In this document: positions 3,258-33,211 of the stretch, one piece after another
How the letters are laid out: every line of letters begins with the position of its first letter
Position numbering within the stretch: position 1 is the stretch's first letter
NCBI GenBank assembly: GCA_021648085.1
Contig: JAKITS010000001.1
Location: 816,064 to 880,063 of the forward strand
Length of the DNA stretch: 64,000 nt
DNA from: Candidatus Magasanikiibacteriota bacterium
GTDB taxonomy: Bacteria > Patescibacteriota > Patescibacteriia > Magasanikbacterales > UBA922
Direction of reading: 5' to 3'
Program-made: the position numbers and the translations under genes
The notes under the pieces: model-generated
The model's input: the letters and a program-made list of their open reading frames with translations, nothing else
What the model was told of the DNA's origin: nothing
The model's database searches: none

Positions 3258-3295
3258 ATGTACTTATTCTAGTTTAATACCTTGCTATTGACAAG

Positions 3296-3395
3296 TAAAC
3301 AAAAGATGAATCACTTAGTTTGATGAATCGTTATACTTGATAAATCATTTTCGCTTCGCTGGATTTGATAAATCGCTTCGCTTGGATAAGACAGG
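3296..3395. repeat. short repeat family 2 (TTGATGAATCGCTTCGCTTG-like), multiple units
   Basis: gatgaatcacttagtttgatgaatcg...ttgataaatcattttcgcttcgctggatttgataaatcgcttcgcttgg; relatives at 7925-7972, 9105-9215, 20425-20470. Confidence 0.7.
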
Positions 3396-4439: not shown

Positions 4440-7139
4440 TTATTTTAATTCACCCCAATTTTTGGCATGGCACGTATGAATTTCGAGTGGTGCCAACATT
4501 TTTGTGCTGTGATCAAAATGTTGCACAGTTTGCATTACCTCTTCTACAACTTTTGTCACTTTGTTTACCAAACTGCTTTTTACCTCAAAAATCAATTCGT
4601 CGTGAACTTGCAAAACTATTTTTACATCTTCAAGTTTAAAATTTTTCTTTAATCTTTTGTCAATTTCTATCATCGCAAGTTTGAGCATATCAGCTGCTGT
4701 TCCCTGAATTGGCATATTTACTGCCATTCGCTCACCAGAGTTTCTCACCTGAAAATTTGATGCTCTCAATTCTGGAATATATCTGCGTCTTCCAAAAAAA
4801 GTTTCAACATATCCAAGTTTTTTTGCAGAATCCAAAGTTTCGTCTATATATTTTTTGACACCTTCAAATTCCTCAAAATATTTTTTTATAAATTCTTTTG
4901 CTTGTTCGTTGGAAATTCCTGTTCTGCTCGCCAAACCATATGAACCCATTCCATACAAAACACCAAAATTTACCTCTTTGGCACGACTTCGCATTGTTTT
5001 TGTAACCTCATCTTCTGACACACCGTTTATCGCTGCCGCAGTTGCTGTGTGAATGTCTTTTCCTTCGTTAAAAATCTCCAACATCTTTTTATCTTTTGCA
5101 AGCGAAGCCACAATTCTAAGCTCAATCTGCGAATAGTCGGCTGAAACCAGTTCAAAACCACTCGGTGTGCTAAAAGCCGTACGAATTTCTCTGCCAATTT
5201 CCGAACGCGTAGGAATATTCTGCAAATTTGGTTTTGAGCTAGAAAGTCTACCGGTTGTTGTCACGGCTTGATTAAAATCTGTATGAATTCTATTTGTATT
5301 TTTATTTATAATTTTTGGCAAAGCATCTACATAAGTATTTTTCAATTTTGACAATTCACGAAACTCCTCTATAAGTGGAATTATGTTGTGAAAACTTCGC
5401 AATTTATTCAATTCGCTAGAAGCAGTGGAGTAGCCAGTTTTACCTTTTTTAATTCCAGCGGTTGACAAAGCCAAATCTTTGAACAAAATATCGCGAAGCT
5501 GAACAGACGAGGCAATATTAAAATCTTTTCCTGCCAATTTATGTATTTTTTCAGTTGTTTTTTCCAATTTTGCGTTTATTTGTTTTGCCAATTTATTTAA
5601 TTTTTCTTTATCAACAAATATTCCATTTAGTTCTATTTGCGCCAAAACTTTTATCAACGGCATTTCAATTTTATGAAACAAATCATCATTTTTCTGTTCT
5701 TTCAAAAATTTATGATATTCTTCGTAAAGTCTGAAAAAATATTCAACCCCCTCATGTACGACTTCTGTACCATCATCAAACAAACTCGTTTGAACATTTT
5801 CTTTTATTTCTTTTCCAAGTTCTCTTGCAACAATACTTTTCAAATCGTGAGCACGGGTGCTAGAATTTGTTAAATACGAAGCAATCATCAAATCAAAAAG
5901 TTTGTTTTTAATTTCAATTCTATTTACTAACAAAATTTTTGTAAGTTGTTTTAGATTATGCCCAAAAAGCAAATTATCCCCAGAAAACAAAGAATAAAAA
6001 GTTTTCTTTTGATCATTTTCAAAAGCACGAAAATCGAAAAAATAATTTTCATTTTTAATTCCACACGCAAATCCTATCAATTTATTTCCTAAAACATCTT
6101 CATTTCCTAAAATTTCTTTACAAAAAAATTCTTTTTCTTTTTTTAATTTTGAAACTATTTTTTCTACATCTTCTACTGAAACTTTTACAATTTCTCTTTT
6201 TTCTTTTTCGGTAGATTTTGTTGGAAGATCTTTTTCCTCGTCGCCAAACATCGCAGAAGCGCGTTTTACCAAACTATTAAATCCAAAACCATTGAACAAA
6301 GCCACAACTTCTTCCAAATCTATTGTTTGTGTCTCGGCATCTTTTACTTTGAAATTTAGACCTTTTACATCTGTCACAATTGTTGCCAATTTTTTACTCA
6401 AAAAAGCCATTTCCTTGTCTGCTTTTAGCAGTTTTACAGTTCGCGGTTTTATTCCTTTTTCTTCCAAACTATCTATTTGCTCATAAATTTTCTCCAAATT
6501 CCCAATTTTAGAAAGCAGTTCATTTGCGCCTTTATCTCCAATTCCTTTTACTCCTGGAATATTATCAGATGGATCGCCTTTTAAAGATTTAAAATCAACC
6601 ATCATTTCTGGTGCAAAACCAAATTTTTCTTTTACAGCCTTTTCATCGAACATTACCACATCTGTTATTCCTTTGCGGATCAAATATACATGGATATTTT
6701 CATCTACCAACTGCAATAAATCTTTATCGCCACTTGAGATTATAACCTGCCCATCCCACTTTTTACTTAAATCTTTTGCAATTGTTCCTATCACATCATC
6801 AGCCTCAAAACCTGCTTTTTGATAAATTGGAATATCAAAAGCCTTCACAACTTCGTGCACAAGTGGAATTTGATCATATAATTCTTGGTCTGTCTTTACC
6901 CGCTTTACCTTATATTCTTTGTACAGATCATCTCGAAAAGTCTTTTTTGCAACATCAAAACTCACAGCCAAATATTCTGGTTTTATAGTATCCAAAACCT
7001 TCAAAAGCATAGAAGCAAAACCATACACAGCGTTCACCTGCACGCCAGCTTTGGTAGTAAACGGAGGAAGCGCGTGATAAGCTCTGTGGATTATCGCATT
7101 CCCATCTATAATTACAAATTTTTCTTTTTTATTAGTCAT
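4440..7139 (-). CDS. polA: DNA polymerase I
   Basis: 899 aa; N-terminal 5'-3' exonuclease domain, C-terminal family A polymerase motifs (DYSQIELR, QVHDELIFEV); 3'-5' exo motifs appear degenerate. Confidence 0.95.
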   Translation of the reverse strand: MTNKKEKFVIIDGNAIIHRAYHALPPFTTKAGVQVNAVYGFASMLLKVLDTIKPEYLAVSFDVAKKTFRDDLYKEYKVKRVKTDQELYDQIPLVHEVVKAFDIPIYQKAGFEADDVIGTIAKDLSKKWDGQVIISSGDKDLLQLVDENIHVYLIRKGITDVVMFDEKAVKEKFGFAPEMMVDFKSLKGDPSDNIPGVKGIGDKGANELLSKIGNLEKIYEQIDSLEEKGIKPRTVKLLKADKEMAFLSKKLATIVTDVKGLNFKVKDAETQTIDLEEVVALFNGFGFNSLVKRASAMFGDEEKDLPTKSTEKEKREIVKVSVEDVEKIVSKLKKEKEFFCKEILGNEDVLGNKLIGFACGIKNENYFFDFRAFENDQKKTFYSLFSGDNLLFGHNLKQLTKILLVNRIEIKNKLFDLMIASYLTNSSTRAHDLKSIVARELGKEIKENVQTSLFDDGTEVVHEGVEYFFRLYEEYHKFLKEQKNDDLFHKIEMPLIKVLAQIELNGIFVDKEKLNKLAKQINAKLEKTTEKIHKLAGKDFNIASSVQLRDILFKDLALSTAGIKKGKTGYSTASSELNKLRSFHNIIPLIEEFRELSKLKNTYVDALPKIINKNTNRIHTDFNQAVTTTGRLSSSKPNLQNIPTRSEIGREIRTAFSTPSGFELVSADYSQIELRIVASLAKDKKMLEIFNEGKDIHTATAAAINGVSEDEVTKTMRSRAKEVNFGVLYGMGSYGLASRTGISNEQAKEFIKKYFEEFEGVKKYIDETLDSAKKLGYVETFFGRRRYIPELRASNFQVRNSGERMAVNMPIQGTAADMLKLAMIEIDKRLKKNFKLEDVKIVLQVHDELIFEVKSSLVNKVTKVVEEVMQTVQHFDHSTKMLAPLEIHTCHAKNWGELK

Positions 7140-7194
7140 AGACTGTATTGTATCACTTTTACAAACAGTTTCAAGACATAATCTTTTTACTACT

Positions 7195-7760
7195 GTTTAT
7201 CATTTCTAGCTTAACCAGAAATCAACCGATCCCCAAGCTGAGGATGACAAGAAGGATATAATGATAGATGATACAGATTCGTGTGTAAACTCATTCCTTA
7301 CTTAATCTGCTCAATCTACTTTTCTCTCACGTCATCCCGAACGAAGCGAAGCCGAGCTTGAGGGATCTCGAGACAGAATAACAAAAACATTAAATAGTGA
7401 AACAAATACGAGATATTTCGGCTCTACTTCGTTCCGCTCAATATGACGTGAATAAAAAACGTCATCCTAAGCGAAGCTGAAGGATCTCGTGAAAGAATAA
7501 TAAGAACAAAAAATAGTAAAACAAACACGAGATCCTTCGGCTCCACTCCGTTCCGCTCAATATGACGTGAATAAAAAACGTCATCCTGAGCGAAATGGAG
7601 CAAAGCGGAATGAAGTCGAAGGATCTCGAGACAGTATCACAAAAGGAAAAAATATATTAACCCTTGAAAAGATATTAAAAATATGTTATATTTGTGTTGA
7701 GTAAGTGTACTAATGAATTAAAAACGAGATCCTTCGGCTATCGCTCAGGATGACGTGATT
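7195..7760. mobile_element. array of three tandem MITE-like copies plus leader segment (about 565 bp)
   Basis: copies 7329-7449, 7459-7568, 7578-7755 joined by gaataaaaa linkers; 7218-7470 about 85% identical to 19128-19400. Confidence 0.85.
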
Positions 7761-9215: not shown

Positions 9216-12200
9216 TCCCAATCTTCACATTTATTAAGTCTCCCTTCCCAGGAATTCCTTTTTTGAGTTTTACCTCTGCTATAAACACATGGTCTCCTTT
9301 TGCCAAAATCTTACTTAAAGTAAAAGTAATTTTCCCATCGAACAAATTGGAAAAATCTGTTATTTCTTCCAAAACAGTTCTTATTCCATCTACATCTTCT
9401 TGGATTATAACAGATTCAATTTGATCAATTTTAAATGGTGTCAAAAAGAAAGTATAAGGAAAATCATTTTTATTAATAATAATATTATTTCCAACCCAAG
9501 TGACGCTCGGTGGTTCAACCCCAGCTATCAATTCAAAAGTTATCTCTTCAATTCGTCTATTTCCCAAATCGTCTTCTGCTGTAATTGTCAAAGTATGTGA
9601 ACCGTCTTGCAAATCGGTAGCATAATAATTCAAATTGAACGGATGAGTTTTTATCACTCCAACATAATTTCCGTTTAGTTGATATGTCACTTTTGCAATT
9701 CCTCTTGGCGAGCTAAAACGAATATCTGTATCAATCTGTCTAGAGCCCAAAGTTGAGCTTGTCGAAGGAAAAATCACTTCAATTGTTGGTGCCATTCCAA
9801 GTGATTCATCTGAATCAAAATCTGCTGGAGGATCTTCAAAACTCACCTCCCAATCTGGATTTGCTTCTTGTTTTCTTTTTATCCAATCTTTAATCGATGC
9901 TTCCCAAATATTATATTGATAATCATTTGCTGGATTTGTTGGGCCCTGCCCACGTGGATTACTTTTTACCAGATAATGCAAAATAGAATGCGGTGGAATA
10001 TAAGTTCGCTCAATTATATTATCTACTGGCGTTGAGCTTGTTGCAATTCTACCTGTTGCCCTGTTTATCATCAGTGTCACACTCCCACCTTTAGACCCTC
10101 TTAAAATAGGTTTTGTAGCAGTATTTGCTGGCGCTCCAGGGAAATATTCCAAAGGAGATCCTTCCAAAGCTTGACTCATAAATGCATTCCAAATTGGACC
10201 AGCAACACGACTTCCGCCATAACCTCTTTTCATTGGAGTATTGTCTGTATTTCCAGCCCAAACTCCTGCAACCAAACTTGGTGTATACCCAATTGTCCAA
10301 GCATCAACATAGCCATTTGTCGTTCCTGTCTTTGCTGCCACCTGCCTCCCAGGAATATTCAAAATACTATTCAATCCAAACGCATAAGCGCGAGCATAAT
10401 TATCACTTAAAACACTAGAAATTGTATTGGTCACCCAGGTTTCTAAAACTCTTTGTGGTCGCTTTCTTTTCCACTCTTCTAAAATCTCTCCTCTATTATC
10501 TATTACTTTCAAAATTGAGACAGATTCTACTTTAGTTCCACCATTTGCAAATACAGAATAAGCAGAAACATGTTCCAACAATTTTACCTCCCCCCCTCCT
10601 AAAACCAAACTAAGTCCAAAATCTCCAGAAGAAAGAGTCGTATATCCTAGACGCTCTGCAAACTCAACACCCTTTTTTGCACCAACCAAATATAAAGTCT
10701 TTACCGCTGGAATATTTAATGAGCCCTGCAAAGCCTGACGCATAGTCACAGGTCCGCGTTCTTGCAAGTCATAATTTCTAGGCATATAAGATCTACCACT
10801 CACGGCAAAATTTGTAAGTACATCAAAAATAATTGTCTCTGGAGTATAGCCCATCTCAAAAGCTGCGGCATAAATAATAGGCTTAAACGACGAACCAGGC
10901 TGACGCTTTCCAAGTGTAGCTACATTAAATTTTCCATCGATATCGTCATTATTAAAATCTTTGGAACCAATCATCGCCAAAATTTGACCAGTTTTTGGAT
11001 CCATCACTACAAGCGAAGTATTGTCCGCATCGGCTTCTGCCAAAACTCTTGTCCCGATATCATTTACAACATTCTCAGCAATCATTTGCTTTTCCCAGTC
11101 GAGTGTTGTTAAAACCCTCAAACCACCCGTGTCCACAAGTTGTTCCCCATATTTTTCTACTAGCTTTTGCTTCACATAAAGTACAAAATGAGGTGATTTT
11201 ATGTCACTATAACGAACTTCCATAAGCAATTCTTCCTCTTGAGCAGAATTCTTTTCTTCTTCAGAAATATAACCCTCGTCGAACATTCTCTGCAATACAA
11301 AATTACGGCGTGTTTTAAGCATTTCTGTATTATTCAAATAAGACGAAGGAGCTTTTGGTATACCGGCCAAAGTCGCAGATTCTGCCAAAGTTAAATCTGT
11401 TACATGTTTTCCAAAATAAGCCTGAGAAGCTGACTCTACACCGTAGTTTGTAGAGCCATAAGGAATTTCATTGAAATAAATTTTTAAAATCTGATCTTTA
11501 CTATATTTCTGCTCCAAACGAAGAGATAATATTATTTCTTTCAGTTTTCTAGTATAAGTCCTCTCGTTGGTCAAAATTGCATTTTTTACCAATTGCTGAG
11601 TCAAAGTAGATGTTCCAGCAATTCTTCTCTCGGTAAATACCCCCATCACCACAGCACGCAAAATACTCAGAGGACGAACTCCATAATGTTCATAAAATTT
11701 TGTATCTTCTGTGGCAATTGCACCATTTATTAAATCTTGTGGAATATCTTCCAATTCTACAATTGTTCTCTTTTTGTCTGCAAAAATCTCATAAAGCAAA
11801 TGTTCGCCTGTTCTATCATAAATTTTTGTACTTTGATCCACATTTCTATCTGTAATCTTATCTGGATCTGGCAAATCTTTGTTTGCCCAAGCTATTAAAA
11901 TAGTCCCAAGAAAAAAACAAAAAACAAAGACTGTTAGCAATGTTAGTCCAATCTTCTTTCTAAATTCACGGCGTTTATACTCTGGAAGTCTAGAATAATA
12001 TTTTTTTACCTTGAATGGCGCAGAAAAAAACTTAGTAAACATCACTAAAGGGATAAAAACAACCCAAACCCAAGACTTGGACTTTTTTAGTCCTTTTTTA
12101 ATCTTTTTTCGGCTATTTTGTATGTATCCGTAAGAACGGTTTTTAAGAGGAGGAATTGGCATATTTTTGCTAAAATTAGCGAAATTTAAAATTATATAAA

Positions 12201-12231
12201 AATAAAATTTTTTACTCAATATACTTGACAA
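9211..12231 (-). CDS. class A penicillin-binding protein (transglycosylase/transpeptidase) with about 300-aa C-terminal extension
   Basis: 1006 aa; N-terminal TM; GT51 motifs (EDTKFYEHYGVRP); transpeptidase SSFKP, SLN, KTGT motifs; extra C-terminal beta-rich region. Confidence 0.9.
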   Translation of the reverse strand: MSSILSKKFYFYIILNFANFSKNMPIPPLKNRSYGYIQNSRKKIKKGLKKSKSWVWVVFIPLVMFTKFFSAPFKVKKYYSRLPEYKRREFRKKIGLTLLTVFVFCFFLGTILIAWANKDLPDPDKITDRNVDQSTKIYDRTGEHLLYEIFADKKRTIVELEDIPQDLINGAIATEDTKFYEHYGVRPLSILRAVVMGVFTERRIAGTSTLTQQLVKNAILTNERTYTRKLKEIILSLRLEQKYSKDQILKIYFNEIPYGSTNYGVESASQAYFGKHVTDLTLAESATLAGIPKAPSSYLNNTEMLKTRRNFVLQRMFDEGYISEEEKNSAQEEELLMEVRYSDIKSPHFVLYVKQKLVEKYGEQLVDTGGLRVLTTLDWEKQMIAENVVNDIGTRVLAEADADNTSLVVMDPKTGQILAMIGSKDFNNDDIDGKFNVATLGKRQPGSSFKPIIYAAAFEMGYTPETIIFDVLTNFAVSGRSYMPRNYDLQERGPVTMRQALQGSLNIPAVKTLYLVGAKKGVEFAERLGYTTLSSGDFGLSLVLGGGEVKLLEHVSAYSVFANGGTKVESVSILKVIDNRGEILEEWKRKRPQRVLETWVTNTISSVLSDNYARAYAFGLNSILNIPGRQVAAKTGTTNGYVDAWTIGYTPSLVAGVWAGNTDNTPMKRGYGGSRVAGPIWNAFMSQALEGSPLEYFPGAPANTATKPILRGSKGGSVTLMINRATGRIATSSTPVDNIIERTYIPPHSILHYLVKSNPRGQGPTNPANDYQYNIWEASIKDWIKRKQEANPDWEVSFEDPPADFDSDESLGMAPTIEVIFPSTSSTLGSRQIDTDIRFSSPRGIAKVTYQLNGNYVGVIKTHPFNLNYYATDLQDGSHTLTITAEDDLGNRRIEEITFELIAGVEPPSVTWVGNNIIINKNDFPYTFFLTPFKIDQIESVIIQEDVDGIRTVLEEITDFSNLFDGKITFTLSKILAKGDHVFIAEVKLKKGIPGKGDLINVKIGK

Positions 12232-12339
12232 AACTTACTATTTATGCTACACTAATAAGGTTAAAATAACAAGAATTAAGTCTGACTATAAGTCAGGCTT
12301 TTTAAATAGACTGCTCTTAAAAGCAATAAGTCTAAATAT

Positions 12340-12867
12340 ATGAAAAATTTTATTAAAACAATTAAATACAGAAATTTCTTCAACGGAACACTGGTTTTTA
12401 TTATTGCTTCTAGTTTGATAGTAAGTAATAACTACCCACAGGTAGTAAGAGCTGAATCTAATTTTATGATTACAGACCCTATTACTTTTACACTTCAGAA
12501 GAATGAAACTATAGCACAAAAACTTCCTAAAAGCAACGACAGAGAAGCTATTAAAACTATGTGGGTGGTTATTACTGCTTATTCTAGTACTGTCGATCAA
12601 ACAGACAGCACACCATGTCACACCGCAAACAACTTTGACTTGTGTACTTATTACGATGAATACAGCGATTACAACTCTATTGCTGGCAACGGATTTATGT
12701 TTAATACAGAGGTTCGTATGCCAGAGATCTTTGGTGACAAAGTATTTGTAGTTCGTGACCGTATGAACAAGAGGTATACTTACGGTCGTATGGATATATG
12801 GTTACCTACACGCGCCGAAGCTATTGAGTTTGGTGTAAAGCGTGTAAAAATGGAAATCTACAATTAA
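12340..12867 (+). CDS. 3D-domain protein (cell-wall associated, MltA/YuiC-like)
   Basis: 175 aa, N-terminal TM/signal; C-terminal 3D-domain-like segment with conserved Asp residues (VITAYSS...GRMDIWLPTRAEAIEFG); promoter TTGACA-17-TACACT at 12225-12253. Confidence 0.65.
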   Translation: MKNFIKTIKYRNFFNGTLVFIIASSLIVSNNYPQVVRAESNFMITDPITFTLQKNETIAQKLPKSNDREAIKTMWVVITAYSSTVDQTDSTPCHTANNFDLCTYYDEYSDYNSIAGNGFMFNTEVRMPEIFGDKVFVVRDRMNKRYTYGRMDIWLPTRAEAIEFGVKRVKMEIYN

Positions 12868-12918: not shown

Positions 12919-14037
12919 TTATTGCCTAATAGGCATCACAATATAAATATAACTATTGTCATTTTTTGGTTTGAGCAAACAAGGTGTATCGCTAGTATTT
13001 ATATTTAAAATAACTTCACTTCCAGAGATTTGTTGCAATCCGTCCAAAACATATCTATGATTCAATAAAATTTCATTTCCATCACCAACAACTTTTGCAT
13101 CTAAACTAGAAGAGTGTTCTCCGGTTTGTGTACTTGTAGAAGAAACAGTCATTTCTCCGTCGCCAATTTTAAAATTCACTGCGTTTACTCCCAAAGTTGT
13201 AAATAAACTTGCAGCTTTTATCTTTTTTACCAAAGATCCGTTTGAAACAGTCGCACCAGTTTTAAATTCCTTGGGGATAATCTGTGTATAATCTGGATAC
13301 TTACCACCCACAAGCCTAGAAGACATTTCAAAATTCGCAAATCTTACAGAAATCTGGTTTTCACTTACCCACAAACGCACATTATTTTCAGCTTGCTCAC
13401 CTTTTAAAGTACCTATCAATCGAACCAATTCTTGAACACTTTTTGAAGGAACAATACATTCAAAACTTTCGTCTCCTTGCGAAATTTCTATTTTCTTTTC
13501 AGCCAATCTGTATGAATCTGTTCCAGCCAAAGTTAGACCTTTAAAACTTGGATTGAAAAATCCAAAATAAACTCCAGATAATTCTTGTCTTATTTCATTT
13601 TTTGCCACAGCTACAACAACTTTTGCCAACGAATCTTTAAAACCTTCTGCCGAAAGTACATATCCATTTTTTTCTTCTATTTCTGGAATAACGGGATAGT
13701 CATCTGCTTCTACACCTTTTATTTTTGTTTTGGAACTTCCACATTTTACGATAAGTTCATTTTCTTCTAAAGAAATATGAATTTGTTCTTCTGGTAAAAG
13801 ATTTATAAAATCAGTCAATGTTTTTGCTGGAACTGTAAAACTTCCTTCGTTTTCTATTTTAGCTCTTAGGTTTGTTTTTATTGCAATTTCCAAATTTGTA
13901 CTCACAAGTTCAACTTTAGAGCCACCTACCTGAATCAATACATTATTTAGTATTGGTAAATTTGTATGTTTATTTGCTATTCCGCTTACTTGGTGTAATA
14001 CGCTTAATAGGTTTTCTCTTGTACATGTGAATTTCAT
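12919..14037 (-). CDS. dnaN: DNA polymerase III beta sliding clamp
   Basis: 372 aa; N-term MKFTCTRENLLSVLHQVSGIANKHTNLPILNNVLIQ typical DnaN; located directly downstream of dnaA. Confidence 0.85.
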   Translation of the reverse strand: MKFTCTRENLLSVLHQVSGIANKHTNLPILNNVLIQVGGSKVELVSTNLEIAIKTNLRAKIENEGSFTVPAKTLTDFINLLPEEQIHISLEENELIVKCGSSKTKIKGVEADDYPVIPEIEEKNGYVLSAEGFKDSLAKVVVAVAKNEIRQELSGVYFGFFNPSFKGLTLAGTDSYRLAEKKIEISQGDESFECIVPSKSVQELVRLIGTLKGEQAENNVRLWVSENQISVRFANFEMSSRLVGGKYPDYTQIIPKEFKTGATVSNGSLVKKIKAASLFTTLGVNAVNFKIGDGEMTVSSTSTQTGEHSSSLDAKVVGDGNEILLNHRYVLDGLQQISGSEVILNINTSDTPCLLKPKNDNSYIYIVMPIRQ

Positions 14038-14139
14038 ATTTTAAAATATTAGTTGAAATCTGAAAATTTGAGTTTCTAGAATTTTATTTTTGTCCTTTCT
14101 ATTAATATATAAATATAAATAGAAGTAGTAGTAATAAGG

Positions 14140-14365
14140 GCTGTGGACAAAGTGGATAACCCTTATTTTTGTTTTGGTTTAGCTAATTTTTGTTTGTTAG
14201 AAATGTGTATCAAGCTGTTAATTTTCTATTAACAACTTGTGTATAAAACTGTTGATAACATTTTGTATGTGGATAACTTACTTTTTGTACACAGGTTATT
14301 CATCTTCTCTCCACAATTTATTCTACATGTTATACATATTTTATCAACAGTTTATCCACTTTTTG
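14140..14365. promoter_or_regulatory. DnaA-box cluster in dnaA-dnaN intergenic region (candidate oriC part)
   Basis: TTATCCACA-like boxes at about 14152 (agtggataac), 14268 (tgtggataact, perfect), 14355 (tttatccact); AT-rich. Confidence 0.6.
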
Positions 14366-14402
14366 TATATAAAATGAATATAAATATTAAACTTTTTACA
14401 AA

Positions 14403-15833
14403 TTAAGTTATAGTATATAATCTTTGTTTAATTAATTCTATTTCTTGTTGTAGTTTTTCATCCATATCTACTTTTTTGTAAATTTTTTTGTATGCATGCA
14501 TTGCTGTTGTGTGATCTCTTCCTCCCATCTCGTTTCCTATTGCAGGATAGGACATACTCAACTCAATTCGCATTAAATACATTATTATTTGTCTTGGGAA
14601 AGATATGTGTCTCGCTCTACTTTTATTTAATATGTCGGTTGGGCTTATATTATAAAATTCAGTAACGGCGTCAATAAGTCTTCTTGGTGTAAGATTTGTT
14701 TTTACATTAACTTTTTTAAATGTGGATATAATTGAATTAACACTATCAATTGTCGGAAAAATATTTTTTAACTCGTGAAATGCAATAATTTTGTTTAATG
14801 CACCTTCTAGTTCACGGATATTGCTTTGTACAGACTCTGCTACCATTTGTACCACCTCGTCTGTTAGTGAATAATTTTTTTCTAGACATTTTGATTGTAA
14901 AATAGCCACTCTTGTCTCTAAGTCTGGGGCTGAAATATCTGCTATCATTCCCCATTCAAAACGGCTTTTGAGTCTGTCTGCTAAAGACGCAATTTCTTTT
15001 GGTGGTCTATCACTTGTGAGGACTACTTGCCTTCTGTTTTGGTGGAGTTCGTTAAAAGTATGGAAAAACTCTTCTTGAGTTTGCTCTTTACCGCCTATAA
15101 ATTGAATGTCGTCTATTAAAAGTAGGTCTACATTTCTATATTTTTCTTTAAAATTCGTAATTCTCCTTTGTTGTACAGCCGAGACAAAATCATTTGTAAA
15201 TTTTTCAGATGTTACATATAAAAAATTCATATTTGGATTTGTCGCAAGCATGGAGTGTGCTATTGCTTGAAGGAGGTGGGTTTTTCCTAATCCAACTCCA
15301 CCATAAATAAACAAAGGATTGTATGCTTCACCAGGACGATTTGCCACAGCGTTTGCAGCGGCATGAGCAAGTTCATTATTTTTTCCTATTATAAAAGATT
15401 CAAAAGAGTATTTAGAGTTTAAGCTAAAACTGTGCCCACTTATTGGCAACATACTAGGTGTAAACTTTTTTTGTGCTGGCGGAACATTGAAAGTTTGTGG
15501 TTTAGTTTTGGGCAGGCTTTGATGTTTTGGTGCAACATTTCGCTTTAAAGCTTCTGTTGCTATAGGTTCTTTTTGTATTTTTTTTATATTATTAACTGTG
15601 TAAGTAACGCGTCTAATAGGTTTTTGAGTTACTTTTTCTAAAAGTCTGACAAGCTCAGAATGATATTTTTTTTCTAACCAGCTTTTTGTAAATTGATTTG
15701 GAACGCAGACTTCTATCTGACCAGCTTCATAGTTTGAAATTCCAGTATCACCAAACCATGTAATAAAATTAGCCTTTGAGATTTTGAGCTCAAATTCTGC
15801 TAGTATGGCTTGCCAAATTTCGTGATTTGTCAT
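14403..15833 (-). CDS. dnaA: chromosomal replication initiator DnaA
   Basis: 476 aa; AAA+ Walker A GGVGLGKTHLLQA, Walker B LLLIDDIQF, C-terminal DNA-binding domain; flanked by DnaA boxes. Confidence 0.95.
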   Translation of the reverse strand: MTNHEIWQAILAEFELKISKANFITWFGDTGISNYEAGQIEVCVPNQFTKSWLEKKYHSELVRLLEKVTQKPIRRVTYTVNNIKKIQKEPIATEALKRNVAPKHQSLPKTKPQTFNVPPAQKKFTPSMLPISGHSFSLNSKYSFESFIIGKNNELAHAAANAVANRPGEAYNPLFIYGGVGLGKTHLLQAIAHSMLATNPNMNFLYVTSEKFTNDFVSAVQQRRITNFKEKYRNVDLLLIDDIQFIGGKEQTQEEFFHTFNELHQNRRQVVLTSDRPPKEIASLADRLKSRFEWGMIADISAPDLETRVAILQSKCLEKNYSLTDEVVQMVAESVQSNIRELEGALNKIIAFHELKNIFPTIDSVNSIISTFKKVNVKTNLTPRRLIDAVTEFYNISPTDILNKSRARHISFPRQIIMYLMRIELSMSYPAIGNEMGGRDHTTAMHAYKKIYKKVDMDEKLQQEIELIKQRLYTIT

Positions 15834-15974
15834 AATTATTTTATATGGTTGGTTTTGCTAAAGTATTATTTTTTGAAGAAGGTTAATTTGGTAATAATTC
15901 TTTGTAATAATAAATTGATTTCATTGTAGCACATAACTTATAAACAAAAAATTGTTCTTAATTTAGCCAAAAAA

Positions 15975-16022
15975 TAAAATTGTGTGGATAACTTGGGTAT
16001 ATTATACACAGGTTATCCACAT
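15975..16022. promoter_or_regulatory. DnaA boxes upstream of dnaA (candidate oriC part / dnaA autoregulation)
   Basis: two perfect TTATCCACA boxes (gtgtggataactt at about 15980 and ggttatccacatg at about 16012) in AT-rich dnaA-rpmH intergenic region. Confidence 0.65.
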
Positions 16023-16173
16023 GTTAACAAGTCTTTATAAAAAACGCAAACGGTAAAAAAACTCTGTAATGGTTGACAAAATCAAATAATTTGTTTATAA
16101 TGGCTTCATTGAGTCTAATGTGATTCAGTTGCACAATTTTTTATTGGACAGTAAGTCCACTTAGTATATTAAT

Positions 16174-16350
16174 ATGCCGAAAAGAACCTATCAACCCAAA
16201 AAAAGAAAAAGAGCGAGAGCACATGGTTTCATGAAAAGAATGAAAACAAAAGCAGGTAGAAATCTTTTGAAAAGAAGAAGAGATAAAAAAAGAGATAAAT
16301 TATCTGTAAGTGATGAAAAAAAAGGTAAACGCCTTAGAAAAACTCGTTAA
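16174..16350 (+). CDS. rpmH: 50S ribosomal protein L34 (with C-terminal basic extension)
   Basis: [45 protein letters not shown] matches L34 consensus, then about 14 extra basic residues; not in ORF track (<60 aa); canonical position upstream of rnpA. Confidence 0.8.
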
Positions 16351-16546
16351 ATTTTTTTGAAAAAACCGTATTGTAAGACCTGCCTCAAAACATTGTTTTT
16401 ATTAAAACTTATAAATTTTTAATAAAGAAAACATGTTTTGAGGCAGGTCTTTTGGATTTTTTTGGTATAATGAAATAACAATTAGATTGTAGCTTTATTT
16501 CTTAAAATTTGATATTTAAAGTTTGTAATTTGTTTGTATCTTATTT

Positions 16547-16942
16547 TTGTATTTTAATAAAAATATGCTTCAAAAAGAAAATAGATTAAAGAAGATGAAA
16601 GATTTTGAAATACTTTTTAAAGAAGGTAGATATTTTAATTTAGAATTTTTGACATTAAAAGTTTGGAAAATTGATCCAGAAAAATATCCCAGAAAAAAAT
16701 ATTCAAAAGACGATTTAAAAATTGCTTTTACTGTTGGCTTGAAAGTAAACAAAAGTGCAGTAAAAAGAAACAGAGTAAGAAGAAAAATGCGCGAAGTTGT
16801 AAGGCTACTTATAAAATCAGAAAAAATAAAAAAAGGTTTTATGGCGGTTTTAATTGCAAAGCCAGAAACTTTGGAAAAAGATTATGCTGAAATTGAAAAA
16901 GTAATAAATAAACTTTTGTTTAAAGCACATTTAATAAAATAG
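16547..16942 (+). CDS. rnpA: ribonuclease P protein component
   Basis: 131 aa basic protein directly downstream of rpmH; RnpA-like RNR motif region (VKRNRVRRKMREVVR). Confidence 0.8.
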   Translation: MYFNKNMLQKENRLKKMKDFEILFKEGRYFNLEFLTLKVWKIDPEKYPRKKYSKDDLKIAFTVGLKVNKSAVKRNRVRRKMREVVRLLIKSEKIKKGFMAVLIAKPETLEKDYAEIEKVINKLLFKAHLIK

Positions 16943-16974
16943 CAAACTAAATAAATTAAAAGTTCATAAAGTCC

Positions 16975-17240
16975 TTACTTTTCTGTCATTCCTGACTTGA
17001 CCAGGAATTCAGGAGTCTTTGGTAAATAGACAATGATACAAACCCTGCCTGCCCGCCGGCAGACGGGGGTCATCAATCAAGCTGAGGATGACAGAATACC
17101 CATATGTCATCCTGAGCGAAGTCGAAGGATCTCGGGATAAGTATTACAAAACAAAAAACATTCACAATTTTGGTTATACTTTCCCGAGATTCCTCAAGTT
17201 CCACTTCACTTCGTTTCGTTTCGTTTGAGATGATGTGTAG
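16975..17240. mobile_element. composite repeat: gtcattcctgacttgaccaggaattcaggagtc module + cctgcccgccggcag + Z + MITE copy (17104-17237)
   Basis: atgtcatcctgagcgaagtcgaaggatctcggg ... cccgagattcctcaagttccacttcacttcgtttcgtttcgtttgagatgatgtg. Confidence 0.8.
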
Positions 17241-17281
17241 AGTCTTTTGTCATTTTAAACAAAAGTGAAAATACTTTTTAT

Positions 17282-17545
17282 ATGAAAAAAATAATCAAAA
17301 AAATACTTTATATGCCACGCATTCCATTTTTGTGGGCAATAAAACTTTATCAAAAAACACTATCTCCAGATCATGGAGTTTTTAAATCTCAGCATCCGTA
17401 CGGATATTGTAGGTTTTACCCAACTTGTAGCGAATACGGTTACAAAATCATTCAAAAAAAAGGTCTTATAAAAGGAATTCCAAAAACTGCCTGGCGAATT
17501 GCCCGTTGCAATCCTTGGAGTAAAGGTGGTGTGGATTTACCTTAA
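17282..17545 (+). CDS. yidD: membrane protein insertion efficiency factor YidD
   Basis: 87 aa; conserved YQKTLSPDHG...CRFYPTCSEY...RCNPWSKGGVD motifs; canonical position after rnpA. Confidence 0.85.
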   Translation: MKKIIKKILYMPRIPFLWAIKLYQKTLSPDHGVFKSQHPYGYCRFYPTCSEYGYKIIQKKGLIKGIPKTAWRIARCNPWSKGGVDLP

Positions 17546-25277: not shown

Positions 25278-25781
25278 TTATTGCTTTTTCTTTAAGCTCG
25301 GAACTACAAGTATCAGCCCCCCTACTATTATCATAATATCCGCTATATTTATAACCGATGTGAACACCCTAAAGTAATCTACCACAAAACCAAGAAATAC
25401 ACGATCTATTAAATTTGAGATGGCTCCTGCAATAACAAGAGATGTTCCAAAAATAAGCCAAAACTTTTTTTTCTTGGTTTTCATTAGAAAAATAATTAAA
25501 CTTGCAATTATAATTGGTATAAATGTGATTAGCAAGAATTTTGGCATAGGAAGACTAAAAGCAATGCCATAGTTTTCATAATATTCCCACCCGACTATAT
25601 TTTTAATTAAATAATAGCTTTTAGATGGATTGTTTACAGCCATACTTTTTAGACTCTGATCCAAAAACAAAAAAAACCCAGATAAAAAAGTTGCTCCTAA
25701 AAGCATTTTTGCACAGAGTATTTTTTGCTTGCTTAAAGCCATTTTAAGCTTCTTCTTTGATTGTTTTTTTACAACTAACAC
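25278..25781 (-). CDS. lspA: lipoprotein signal peptidase II
   Basis: 167 aa, 4 TM; conserved NxGxAF-like GIAFSL and NLIDRVFLGFVVDYF motifs. Confidence 0.8.
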   Translation of the reverse strand: MLVVKKQSKKKLKMALSKQKILCAKMLLGATFLSGFFLFLDQSLKSMAVNNPSKSYYLIKNIVGWEYYENYGIAFSLPMPKFLLITFIPIIIASLIIFLMKTKKKKFWLIFGTSLVIAGAISNLIDRVFLGFVVDYFRVFTSVINIADIMIIVGGLILVVPSLKKKQ

Positions 25782-26118
25782 AAGATCCTGAAGTTGGTCG
25801 TGCTCGTAGTCTTCTTTTGTCTATAGGTTTGTCGCAGTATTTACAAATACCATAAGACCTTTTCTCTATTGAAGTTAGTGCTTTGTTTACGTCGCGCAAC
25901 AACTTTTCCAAGTTTATCTCCAAAGGCTTGTTTACAGCATATTGCTCCATTTCTTGCACATTATCATCTTCATCATCTCCATATTCTGGATAGTTTGCCT
26001 CAAAATCTCCTTTTATCTTAGGATTTTTACGAGTAAATTTAGAAAGCTCTCTTTCTAAACGAGTCTTATCTTTTAGTAATTTTTCTTTTATTTCCCCTAC
26101 AAATTTTGGATCATGCAT
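25744..26118 (-). CDS. DksA/TraR-family C4 zinc-finger protein
   Basis: 124 aa; C-terminal CKYCDKPI...CVSCKK four-Cys finger, N-terminal coiled-coil; overlaps lspA start by 38 nt. Confidence 0.7.
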   Translation of the reverse strand: MHDPKFVGEIKEKLLKDKTRLERELSKFTRKNPKIKGDFEANYPEYGDDEDDNVQEMEQYAVNKPLEINLEKLLRDVNKALTSIEKRSYGICKYCDKPIDKRRLRARPTSGSCVSCKKTIKEEA

Positions 26119-26179
26119 ATTGTTCTACTATTTAAAGTGCTTCTATTATATGAAATAATTCGATTTTTTGCAATAGCTC

Positions 26180-26430
26180 GTAAGAAGAACAAGAAATAAA
26201 TACACATCATCCCGAACAAAGCGAAGTACAAAATACTCACATATTATCCCAAACAAAACGCAAAATATACACACGTCATCCTGAGCGAAGCCGAAGGATC
26301 TCGAAACAATATCACCAAAACATAAAAATAGTGAAACAAACACGAGATATTTCGACTCCACTTCGTTTTGTTTAGTATGATGTGAAGTCCTTTTGTCATT
26401 CCCGACCCCGATCGGGAATCCAGGAGTCTT
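26180..26430. mobile_element. MITE-like copy (26273-26383) plus flanking modules (gtcattcccgaccccgatcgggaatccaggagtc)
   Basis: cacgtcatcctgagcgaagccgaaggatctcgaaac ... cacgagatatttcgactccacttcgttttgtttagtatgatgtg. Confidence 0.85.
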
Positions 26431-26454
26431 TATTCACAGATAATAAAAGAAAGA

Positions 26455-26735
26455 ACAGGAAAGTAGTGTGTTTACTTATTTAAACAAACAAAAAAGGCGT
26501 CCGAATGAGCCTAATAGTTATATTTGCTCTGGACGCCTTGTTTATAGTTCGTCTTCTTTAAGTACGATATTTTCGCAATCTCTGCGAAAGGTATTATTAC
26601 TTAAGGAAGACTCTCTTTACCCCACAGAGGTAGAGCCCTCGGTTCGTCATATAAACGACGAACAATAGTGAAGGTTACCAGTCCAGCTTACGGTTGTTGC
26701 GTCTCATAAGTGCCTTAGGAGACTTTTTTATTTTT
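26455..26735. ncRNA. candidate structured small RNA (unclassified), strand uncertain
   Basis: about 280-bp ORF-free, unusually GC-richer segment with long imperfect stem-loops (gtcttctttaagta...tacttaaggaagac; gttcgtc..gacgaac); intrinsic terminators at both edges (26495-26540 facing minus; 26700-26735 facing plus). Confidence 0.35.
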
Positions 26736-27004
26736 GTTTTTGTTTTTTTGTCCGAAGATAATTGGACAGCTTTTTGAAATGAAAGAGCATTAAAACGCAA
26801 CAATTATAAGCTGGAAAGAGTAGAGTGAAAGAGGTCGATGTAACTCGCAAATAGAACTTTGTGAATTACAGCGTTTGTCAATGAACTATGTCTATATTAT
26901 GCCATATTTTTTAGAGTTTGTCAATGTTGGTGGGATTAGTTTAAATTTGGCTAAATTAAGCCAGTTTTTTTGAACACAAAAGTGTGTGTTAGTAAATACA
27001 AAAA

Positions 27005-27216
27005 AAATTGTGGATAAATTTAAAAAGTTATCCACAGATTTACTAAGTTATCCACAAGTTATCCACATTTTATATTTTTTGTGTAGGACTGAATAATTAT
27101 TTTTGGAGAGTTAGCTGTGTACAAAATGTGTACAACCTGTGGATTTTTCGTGGAAAACTTGAAAATAAAGGCTTGTATAAAATATGTGAACAGACATAAA
27201 AGTTTAGTGTGGATAA
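27005..27216. promoter_or_regulatory. cluster of five perfect DnaA boxes (TTATCCACA) in AT-rich intergenic region
   Basis: ttgtggataaatt (27008), gttatccacag (27038), gttatccacaag (27050), ttatccacatt (27060), gtgtggataagtt (27207); about 11 kb from dnaA. Confidence 0.7.
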
Positions 27217-27313
27217 GTTTAAAATTGAAAAATTTATATATTATTTAAAATGATTTAGTATTTTGTTATTTTTCAAATAATAAAATACCCTCAATTTTTC
27301 AATTGAGGGTAAA

Positions 27314-27394
27314 TACCGGAAACGGGAATCGAACCCGTACGCTTTAAGGCGGGAGATTTTAAGTCTCCTGTGTATACCATTTCACCATTCCGGC
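27314..27394 (-). tRNA. tRNA-Leu (UAA), copy 1
   Basis: minus-strand GCCGGAATGGTGAAATGGTATACACAGGAGACTTAAAATCTCC + long variable arm + CGGGTTCGATTCCCG; anticodon loop CUUAAAA; own promoter (TTGACA-17-TAATTT, minus, about 27420-27455). Confidence 0.8.
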
Positions 27395-27667
27395 ACAAGA
27401 AATTAAAAAATAATGAACTATTTATGAAATTATCATATTTTTTGTTTTTTGTCAATCTTTTTGGATTAAATTTTGGATAAATTATAAAAATAAATATATT
27501 TATTCATTCCCACAACAAAAAAACAGCAATACTGCTGTTTTTGTGCCGCGTTCGAGGGTCTCCCTGTGTAGTTTTGGTTTTCACCAAACCTACCCTTCGA
27601 TTCCCGACATGACACAAGACTTTGTGTCATTCCCACAACAAAAAAACAGCAATACTGCTGTTTTTTG

Positions 27668-27752
27668 TGCCGCGGGCGGGAATCGAACCCGCACTCCTTT
27701 AGGGGGAACAGGATTTTAAGTCCTGCGTGTCTACCAATTCCACCACCGCGGC
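27668..27752 (-). tRNA. tRNA-Leu (UAA), copy 2
   Basis: minus-strand GCCGCGGTGGTGGAATTGGTAGACACGCAGGACTTAAAATCCTG + long variable arm + TTCGATTCCCGCCCGCGGCA; immediately followed by hairpin terminator 27640-27667. Confidence 0.85.
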
Positions 27753-27912: not shown

Positions 27913-28542
27913 ATGGGCGACAGAGGTCTTTATATGAATAATAATTGGTTTGGTGACATCAATAAATCTGATGACACAAAAAATAAAATAAAACAAACAC
28001 AAAAAAGTGTGCGACATCTTGTGATTGATGCAAGAGTTAAAGCACAAAAGTCCGCTAAAAGAATTTTGGAAGAGGTGGAGCTTCGTGTCCGCGTAATGGA
28101 TAGTAGGTTGGTGGAGTTCATTGTATTTGTCATGGCGAATGAGTGGATCCAGCAAAGTTATTTAGGAATTGACGAGGAACTTAAGAACCTATCACTTCGT
28201 CCACTTTCCTTAGCTCTTGCTCTTCAAGCCAGCTTTTGGGATGGTTTGTTGAAAGAAATTGAAGACAATGAAAATTTAGATATTTCAGCTTTTATTCTAG
28301 AGACAAGAGATAAGGCTATTGTCTCTGGTCAGTTGTTTGTGGAGGATATGAAGCCTTGTTATGAGGAACTTCTTCAAAGATTAAAAAATATAAAAGATCT
28401 GATTTTAGAAATGAAAGGTATGAAAGCCGCTTCAGATTTTGGTAAAATTAAGAATTGTTTTACTTTTACTAGCTACACCCCACTTTCTGTTGCTCTTCGT
28501 GAGCAAAAAAGAGTGTGGGATGAGTTGGTTGAAAAGATCTAA
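27913..28542 (+). CDS. hypothetical protein
   Basis: 209 aa, good RBS (GGAGGAAGGAAAATG); no recognisable family; acidic/helical. Confidence 0.45.
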   Translation: MGDRGLYMNNNWFGDINKSDDTKNKIKQTQKSVRHLVIDARVKAQKSAKRILEEVELRVRVMDSRLVEFIVFVMANEWIQQSYLGIDEELKNLSLRPLSLALALQASFWDGLLKEIEDNENLDISAFILETRDKAIVSGQLFVEDMKPCYEELLQRLKNIKDLILEMKGMKAASDFGKIKNCFTFTSYTPLSVALREQKRVWDELVEKI

Positions 28543-32917: not shown

Positions 32918-33211
32918 AATTTTTTGTTAGTAGACCTATTTCAAAATAAGATTTTGAAATAGGTCTGTTTTATAAATAAAGAACAAAGTAGAAGTTTTTA
33001 GACAATATCTTTGAAGAAGATAAAACACTATATATAGTGTCTATTATTTATTTAACATACTAGATATTGTATTTTGCTGTAAAATTATTATATCACATTT
33101 CAAAAAAATGTTATCCACAACATGTTGATAATGTTTTTTGAAATTGACATACGCTTAATGATATTGCTATAAATAAACCGCTATAAACTCATTAAAAAAT
33201 GGAGGTAATAG

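Follow-up and report, generated by a model that had tools for sequence, protein, structure and literature searches.

Genomic context of the locus

The window, that is, the whole 64,000-nt stretch of DNA analysed here, carries a classical origin gene set and a minus-strand unit composed of a promoter, a structured non-coding block and an intrinsic terminator, which is followed by a DksA/TraR-family gene (Table 1). ComM, encoded three genes from this RNA, shares 70% identity with a protein of Candidatus Magasanikbacteria, which places the window in a Patescibacteria (CPR) genome. In the window, as well as in the related loci L020, L004, and L008, the RNA is located 4-11 kb from dnaA.

Five perfect DnaA boxes are found upstream of the RNA promoter. 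Because dnaA has flanking boxes of its own (14142-14360 and 15983-16021), this cluster near 27 kb represents a second one, and it possesses the most perfect boxes among the DnaA-box sites of the window. A third oriC candidate, consisting of two DnaA boxes at 33111-33131, is present between the divergent nrdA (minus) and Band-7 (plus) genes, at the very point where the genes change direction and the GC skew becomes positive. According to GC skew and gene orientation, the origin lies between 14 and 34 kb, which leaves all three box sites as candidates.

The association of DnaA boxes with the RNA promoter extends to the relatives described below. Across 33 related loci, the 500-nt stretch before the RNA promoter is 13-fold enriched in DnaA boxes compared with the rest, and the boxes occur at recurring offsets. 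Moreover, TGTATACA palindromes alternate with the DnaA boxes in 23 of 29 loci (65-fold enriched over the rest of the loci); in L020, L004, L096, L085, L138, and others, they fall within the 400 nt that precede the RNA promoter. The palindromes are probably recognised by a second DNA-binding protein.

Clusters of several high-affinity boxes in non-coding DNA near the origin are also represented by datA and DARS of E. coli and by the DnaA-box clusters of B. subtilis. E. coli datA follows a tRNA operon, and read-through transcription modulates it (PMC10950094); the window cluster is likewise placed directly downstream of tRNA genes. Unlike these known clusters, however, the one in the window keeps a fixed distance from the promoter of the structured RNA. 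The tRNA genes in question are two tandem tRNA-Leu(UAA) genes (27313-27395 and 27667-27752, minus), which, on the same strand, immediately precede the DnaA-box cluster; a tRNA-Leu upstream of the cluster is also present in L081 and L104. A 209-aa ORF at 27913-28542 (plus) belongs to no Pfam family, has only a faint coiled-coil-like NCBIfam match, and has no homologue in any fetched locus.

Table 1. Features of the RNA locus and its surroundings in the window (paired parts of the RNA are from the predicted fold)
Feature	Position	Strand	Remarks
Classical origin gene set	12919-17545		dnaN (minus), dnaA (minus), rnpA (plus), yidD (plus)
rnpA	16547-16942	plus	encodes RnpA
DksA/TraR-family gene	25744-26118	minus	Pfam zf-dskA_traR; NCBIfam yteA/DksA below cut-off
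dksA promoter-like site	26173-26145	minus	TTGCAA-17-TATAAT (promoter scan)
Probable RNA gene, ~400 nt	26490-26889	minus	5' end placed from the promoter, 3' end from the terminator
Intrinsic terminator	26490-26539	minus	two-tier, AAGGCGUCC...GGACGCC stem, then U6
P6 long hairpin	26551-26611	minus	GUCUUCCUUAAGUA..UACUUAAAGAAGAC, inner stem UUUCGCA/UGCGAAA
P3, 3' strand	26613-26625	minus	GUGGGGUAAAGAG; family consensus GYGGUAGARRGG
P5 arm	26629-26679	minus	GGUA-A-CCUUC / GAGGG-CUC-UACC around hairpin P5a (26663-26642)
P4 arm	26683-26814	minus	closing helix 26814-26796 with 26701-26683
P4, hairpin hpB	26723-26701	minus	predicted fold
P4, A-rich tract	26749-26723	minus	27 nt, predicted single-stranded
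P4, hairpin hpA	26770-26749	minus	predicted fold
P3, 5' strand	26820-26833	minus	CUCUUUCACUCUAC; partner 26625-26613
P2 hairpin	26836-26873	minus	predicted fold; one compensatory U-A to C-G change vs L081
Conserved 5' motif	26879-26887	minus	AGUUCAUUG; family consensus GUUCWUU, aligned in nearly all members
RNA promoter	26896-26924	minus	TTGACA 26924-26919, 17-bp spacer, extended -10 TGgCATAAT 26904-26896
Five perfect DnaA boxes	27009-27216		TTATCCACA; 85-300 bp upstream of the RNA promoter
Palindrome	~27117-27140		TGTACA..TGTACA, amid the DnaA-box cluster

Promoter, terminator and extent of the RNA unit

A sequence-only reading of this DNA had flagged the 281 nt at 26455-26735 as a GC-richer, highly structured segment with terminators on both edges and had proposed a novel small RNA there. 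The GC content of the segment (0.37-0.415 against 0.27-0.33 in the flanks) is indeed elevated, to a modest degree, and its structure is confirmed by fold prediction, in which z was -5.45 on the plus and -5.50 on the minus strand, and none of 200 dinucleotide shuffles was as stable. The terminator facing the minus strand is also borne out, since a G+C-rich stem-loop stands directly before a U-run. The relatives described below have terminators of the same design, in which an outer stem, an inner stem and a large loop are followed by U5-8, with stem sequences that differ (judged by eye).

The edges had been drawn differently from what we found. The segment covers just the 3' ~60% of the RNA unit, which extends to about 26889; the unit has to reach past the segment, as the helix P3 pairs a strand beyond the flagged span with one inside it. 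The promoter, which the promoter scan rates at 11/12 with a TG extension, is near-consensus for sigma-70, and the conservation of this promoter together with the long-range helix P3 argues for a single transcript from the minus strand, about 400 nt long, and the segment had left out the first third of it. As for the proposed plus-strand terminator at 26700-26735, a T-run does exist there next to a hairpin of 5 bp with a loop of 13 nt, but the terminator scan did not call it, and the same letters are the complement of hpB and the A-rich tract, which correspond to an internal hairpin and a conserved A-rich stretch of the minus-strand RNA in relatives. We infer both ends of the RNA, as well as its abundance, from sequence signals alone.

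Relatives and covariance model

Synteny and promoter inspection of five comM loci gave the first shared order, namely DnaA boxes, a TTGACAAA..TGnTATAnT promoter, 300-450 nt of non-coding DNA, a terminator, and the dksA-like gene, lspA, and comM. A further 80 loci were obtained from a metagenome scan seeded with the DksA-like protein. When the whole region was searched against 80 comM loci with nhmmer and blastn, only a weak match in L004 was returned, while iterated nhmmer delineated a core of ~75 nt common to 36 loci. Neither MAFFT of three full-length RNAs nor MAFFT and RNAalifold of the core with flanks kept the P5 strands in register, and almost no structure was recovered; for this reason, a trimmed core seed with a hand-drawn structure was used to build the covariance model R1.

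In 713 kb of dksA-like loci, R1 detected 60 copies. Each of them shares the strand of the gene and is located 250-500 nt upstream of the DksA-like ORF, although this constant synteny is partly built into the sampling, as every relative was fetched through the DksA-like neighbour or comM. By comparison, 964 kb of comM loci from other lineages gave one weak match (16.6 bits). The window copy scored 33.6 bits at 26612-26679 on the minus strand (E = 1.9e-5, a rough value owing to a shortened calibration).

Thirty-five members could be traced end to end. In essentially all of them, a consensus promoter precedes the core by 160-270 nt, and a terminator follows 110-260 nt downstream of it. The resulting promoter-RNA-terminator unit is 280-460 nt long and is present in at least 60 Patescibacteria (Magasanikbacteria-like) contigs. 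Two subtypes can be distinguished, a longer type 1, which includes the window, and a shorter type 2 (e.g., L015, L131, and L008). At ~7000-7400 of L046, the promoter, the P3 strands, and the A-rich tract are kept, while P5 is a simple hairpin missed by the covariance model; because L046 escapes the model, the family is probably broader than the 60 matches.

Secondary structure and covariation

The full RNA (26889-26490) has a minimum free energy of -133.9 kcal/mol, compared with -76.4 +/- 5.5 kcal/mol in shuffles (z = -10.5). All of the long helices named in the sequence-only reading are present in this fold: gtcttctttaagta/tacttaaggaagac around tttcgca/tgcgaaa corresponds to P6, and gttcgtc/gacgaac to P5a.

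The 5' motif is the loop of a covarying hairpin in type-2 members (GUAG/CUAC versus GUUG/CAAC, by eye). The paired sequences of P2 differ across the family, as judged by eye, its compensatory change coming from the window/L081 pair only. Within P4, the A-rich motif AAAAYAAAAAYAAAA was found in 21 of 35 members, while P5 is the most conserved part of the RNA. P6 varies within the family, with one or two different hairpins at that position in other members.

Two further pairings were seen. The RNAs of the window and L081 share a 5'-3' closing helix, AUAGUUC/GAACUAU, which was not found elsewhere by eye, so no such helix is proposed for the family. In type-1 members, CCUGG, which precedes the terminator, might form a pseudoknot with CCAGG in the loop of the terminator, a candidate that was likewise recognised by eye.

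Comparative alignment brought out covariation in the core. For P5, 90.7% of the cells are paired, compared with 69% for shuffled partners and 35-47% when partners were slid by 1-3 columns, and compensatory change occurs at 18 of 20 pairs, with 254 double-change cells against 85 +/- 11; the alignment was fitted to the model, which inflates these pair counts, and this is mitigated by the slid-partner control and by an unfitted test of P3. The latter used a plain, sequence-only MAFFT alignment (A7) of the two P3 strands spliced together, in which 88.6% of the cells are paired versus 80.5% in shuffles and 37-62% after sliding, with compensatory change at 8 of 11 pairs. The closing duplex of P4 beats its shuffles in 27 of 32 members (z < -2; mean z = -3.7), even though its sequences are unrelated between members, such as CGAGCU/AGCUCG, UUAGGGUG/CAACCCUAA, and CCAGCUUA/UAAGCUGG.

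The closest relative, L081, is 82.6% identical to the window RNA over its full length. Despite this 17% divergence, all 105 predicted pairs, including those of P5a and P6, are kept and none is broken, with five double and nine single pair-preserving changes; three compensatory changes fall in P6.

In these alignments, compensatory substitutions demonstrate that the predicted helices P3, P4, and P5 are maintained. The comparisons thus establish, at the level of the predicted fold, a conserved core that is a three-way junction closed by the long-range helix P3 (12-13 bp) and bearing the arms P4, with the A-rich strand at its tip, and P5, an irregular hairpin, while the part 3' of the core is predicted to consist of lineage-variable hairpins followed by the terminator.

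We consider it likely that the locus harbors an independent gene whose product, a large and structured non-coding RNA, belongs to a new family. The earlier proposal of a novel, lineage-specific small RNA holds insofar as the RNA is non-coding, structured, without Rfam match, and represented by 60 loci with covariation, but at 300-450 nt it would be large and not a typical small RNA.

Relationship with the DksA-like gene

An RNA in this position could also be a cis-acting leader or attenuator, riboswitch-like or protein-binding, which controls read-through into the dksA-like gene, lspA, and comM. Such a role is suggested by its location directly upstream of the DksA-like gene on the same strand in all 60 matches and by a terminator that precedes the DksA-like ORF by 90-370 nt, although the synteny is in part an artefact of having fetched the loci via dksA. 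A riboswitch or attenuation leader would belong to the 5' UTR of the gene it regulates, and no promoter would intervene. Instead, a -35/-10 promoter separates the terminator from dksA in at least 20 of 35 relatives and also in the window (26173-26145). Moreover, the terminator of the window is parted from the ORF by a spacer of 370 nt filled with repeats, and a consensus extended -10, a length of 300-450 nt, and a strong U6-8 terminator are typical of stable RNA genes.

The spacer of the window is occupied at 26160-26440 by degenerate G+C-rich repeat copies (GTCATCCTGAGCGAAGCCGAAGGATCTCG; GTCATTCCCGACCCCGATCGGGAATCC), while most relatives have ~90-330 nt between the terminator and the first matched dksA residue.

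A conserved antiterminator was looked for and did not prove to be general. Antiterminator-like pairing has a mean z of -0.4 over 30 members and z = +0.6 in the window; it is absent from the window and L081, and z reaches ~ -3 in a few type-2 members only. In L015 (~3270-3334), L133, and L140, the latter values go with a CUCGCC segment upstream of the terminator, which is complementary to the terminator 5' strand GGCGAG over 8-10 bp and speaks for a leader. Judging from this complementarity, the alternative fold could act as a termination modulator in that type-2 subgroup only.

Altogether, a leader function for the family appears unlikely. As far as the promoter predictions go, the DksA-like gene would be syntenic with the RNA but a separate unit, which usually has its own promoter. 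Because of this promoter, and because antiterminator pairing is not general, an independent RNA acting in trans is favoured.

Comparison with known RNA families

Rfam 15 (4227 models, gathering thresholds) detected only tRNAs in the window, and relaxed thresholds over 26100-27320 added only chance-level matches. At E <= 10, no family matched the window copy and none recurred in 14 further members; this includes RF00010 and RF00011, which were also without match at the gathering threshold, and the 6S-type and SRP models. As well, the Rfam 15 covariance models of OLE, GOLLD, ROOL, HEARO, and raiA gave no match, and no description of this RNA was found in a literature search.

We also considered an extremely diverged housekeeping RNA, i.e., RNase P RNA, 6S/Ms1, tmRNA, or SRP RNA, that the models miss. 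Its size and strong promoter would suit RNase P RNA or tmRNA, and the DksA-like neighbor, an RNA-polymerase binder, would suit a function of the 6S/Ms1 type. Class A RNase P RNA in particular is comparable in length and likewise has a strong promoter; RnpA is encoded inside the window, where no RNase P RNA was detected, and in other Patescibacteria rnpB is located within ~3 kb of comM, a roughly similar neighborhood. RNase P RNAs of CPR bacteria are known to score below the Rfam thresholds and yet keep their core (PMC8172020). In agreement with that study, two copies near comM in other lineages, L026 (~6880-7290) and L041 (~12100-12510), have a perfect CR-I and a near-perfect CR-V, yet fall under the Rfam gathering score.

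The signature motifs argue against this identity. The CR-I/CR-V pattern readily finds RNase P RNA in eight other Patescibacteria comM loci, with the motifs ~320 nt apart, whereas no consistent match to CR-I (GAGGAAAGUCC) or CR-V (ACAGAAnnnGGCUUA) within two mismatches occurs in the 35 members of the present family, so that this RNA is without the P4 core of RNase P. Likewise, the SRP helix-8 motif (GGAAGCAGCC-like) and the T-arm motif are absent from all 35 members, the window RNA ends in a terminator, and ARAGORN predicted no tmRNA in the window or 34 loci. The failure of the sequence-only reading to find RNase P, tmRNA, or SRP signatures in the window thus extends to its relatives, and the Rfam scan gave no match to these classes either. 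RNase P identity, which had been considered because rnpB occurs near comM elsewhere, was rejected owing to the absence of the catalytic-core motifs. The canonical RNase P RNA genes within ~3 kb of comM in other lineages are those of L011, L026, L041, L022, L029, L032, L055, and L006; the one in L011 (7294-7677) reaches the Rfam threshold with 111.9 bits. A CR-I-like site suspected in L015 is not part of an RNase P RNA.

The suggestion that the RNA may be 6S-like did not hold up either. 6S RNA is a rod of ~180-200 nt with a central bubble, whereas the covarying core here is a three-way junction with extra arms in an RNA of 280-460 nt. Some likeness to 6S/Ms1, the RNA-polymerase-binding decoys, exists all the same: this RNA is probably abundant too, given its very strong promoter, it adjoins the gene for an RNA-polymerase-binding factor, and it is predicted to have a long single-stranded tract between helices. 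Taking all of these observations together, we regard a diverged known housekeeping RNA as very unlikely.

A resemblance in kind is found with raiA, OLE, ROOL, GOLLD, and HEARO, which are likewise stand-alone, lineage-restricted, multi-helix RNAs of a few hundred nt with strong covariation and their own promoter and terminator. raiA also shares a conserved position just upstream of one gene and no obvious riboswitch. The host lineage (Patescibacteria) and the neighbor (the DksA-like gene) differ from those of the five classes, and we know of no counterpart in them to the upstream DnaA-box array.

DNA-level structure and coding potential

The unit directly adjoins the conserved array of DnaA boxes and TGTATACA palindromes and is origin-proximal, so the region might instead be a DNA-level structure of the replication origin or a DnaA-titration locus, or its transcript might be incidental and serve to drive transcription away from the DnaA boxes. 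However, the compensatory changes keep intramolecular helices and include G-U pairs, which are strand-specific for RNA, such as the U-G of P3, which never varies, and the numerous UG cells of P5. Moreover, the DNA sequence diverges freely while the pairing stays, and the conserved block is precisely delimited by promoter and terminator, which makes an explanation at the DNA level highly improbable. A small protein-coding gene can practically be dismissed: ORFs of 66 aa (26468-26668, plus) and 42 aa (26675-26803, minus) are present, but the former matches no protein family, in line with the earlier remark that it has no protein-like features, the erratic lengths and positions of ORFs over 35 homologous regions (the longest on the plus strand of L081 being 39 aa) argue against a conserved reading frame, and the substitutions preserve pairs and are not codon-like.

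Possible function and significance

An independent RNA gene with a consensus promoter and a strong terminator, placed close to the origin, would be expected to yield an abundant and stable RNA, which may act in trans. Two parts resemble binding surfaces, namely the junction of P5 and P3, which is invariant, and the A-rich, (AAN)n-like tract, which is predicted to be exposed; through them the RNA would most likely serve as a protein-binding scaffold or decoy. Since DnaA boxes are located upstream of the promoter, replication-linked control is suggested as well, in which RNA synthesis might be coupled to DnaA occupancy and, hence, to replication and growth state. RNA polymerase is a candidate partner, as the conserved neighbor encodes a DksA-like RNA-polymerase-binding protein. 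We offer this mechanism, a protein decoy coupled to DnaA, as a tentative possibility.

A fuller version, which we think doubtful, would make the RNA a replication-coupled regulator, in which box-bound DnaA sets transcription of the RNA and the RNA in turn feeds back on the machinery of transcription or replication. It might do so as an RNA polymerase decoy of the 6S/Ms1 type together with the neighboring DksA-like factor; alternatively, the RNA might bind DnaA, or a different single-strand binder, through its exposed A-rich strand.

Among bacterial RNAs, large and highly structured ones that covary strongly are uncommon, and those which have been solved, such as ribosomal RNA, RNase P, tmRNA, SRP, and 6S, proved to do fundamental jobs. 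The RNA described here is conserved within one lineage of the CPR. CPR bacteria are ultra-small, have minimal genomes and keep little useless DNA, and to our knowledge, almost nothing is known about their RNA biology. At the least, the finding would add a new RNA family to annotation resources and account for a ~400-bp "intergenic" block that is otherwise unexplained or mis-called as small ORFs. Its coupling to a DnaA-box array and a DksA-like gene leads to testable hypotheses on how transcription may be tied to replication. If the replication-coupled regulator were true, an RNA would connect the initiation of chromosome replication with global transcription in CPR bacteria of reduced genome size, a link that has not been known before.
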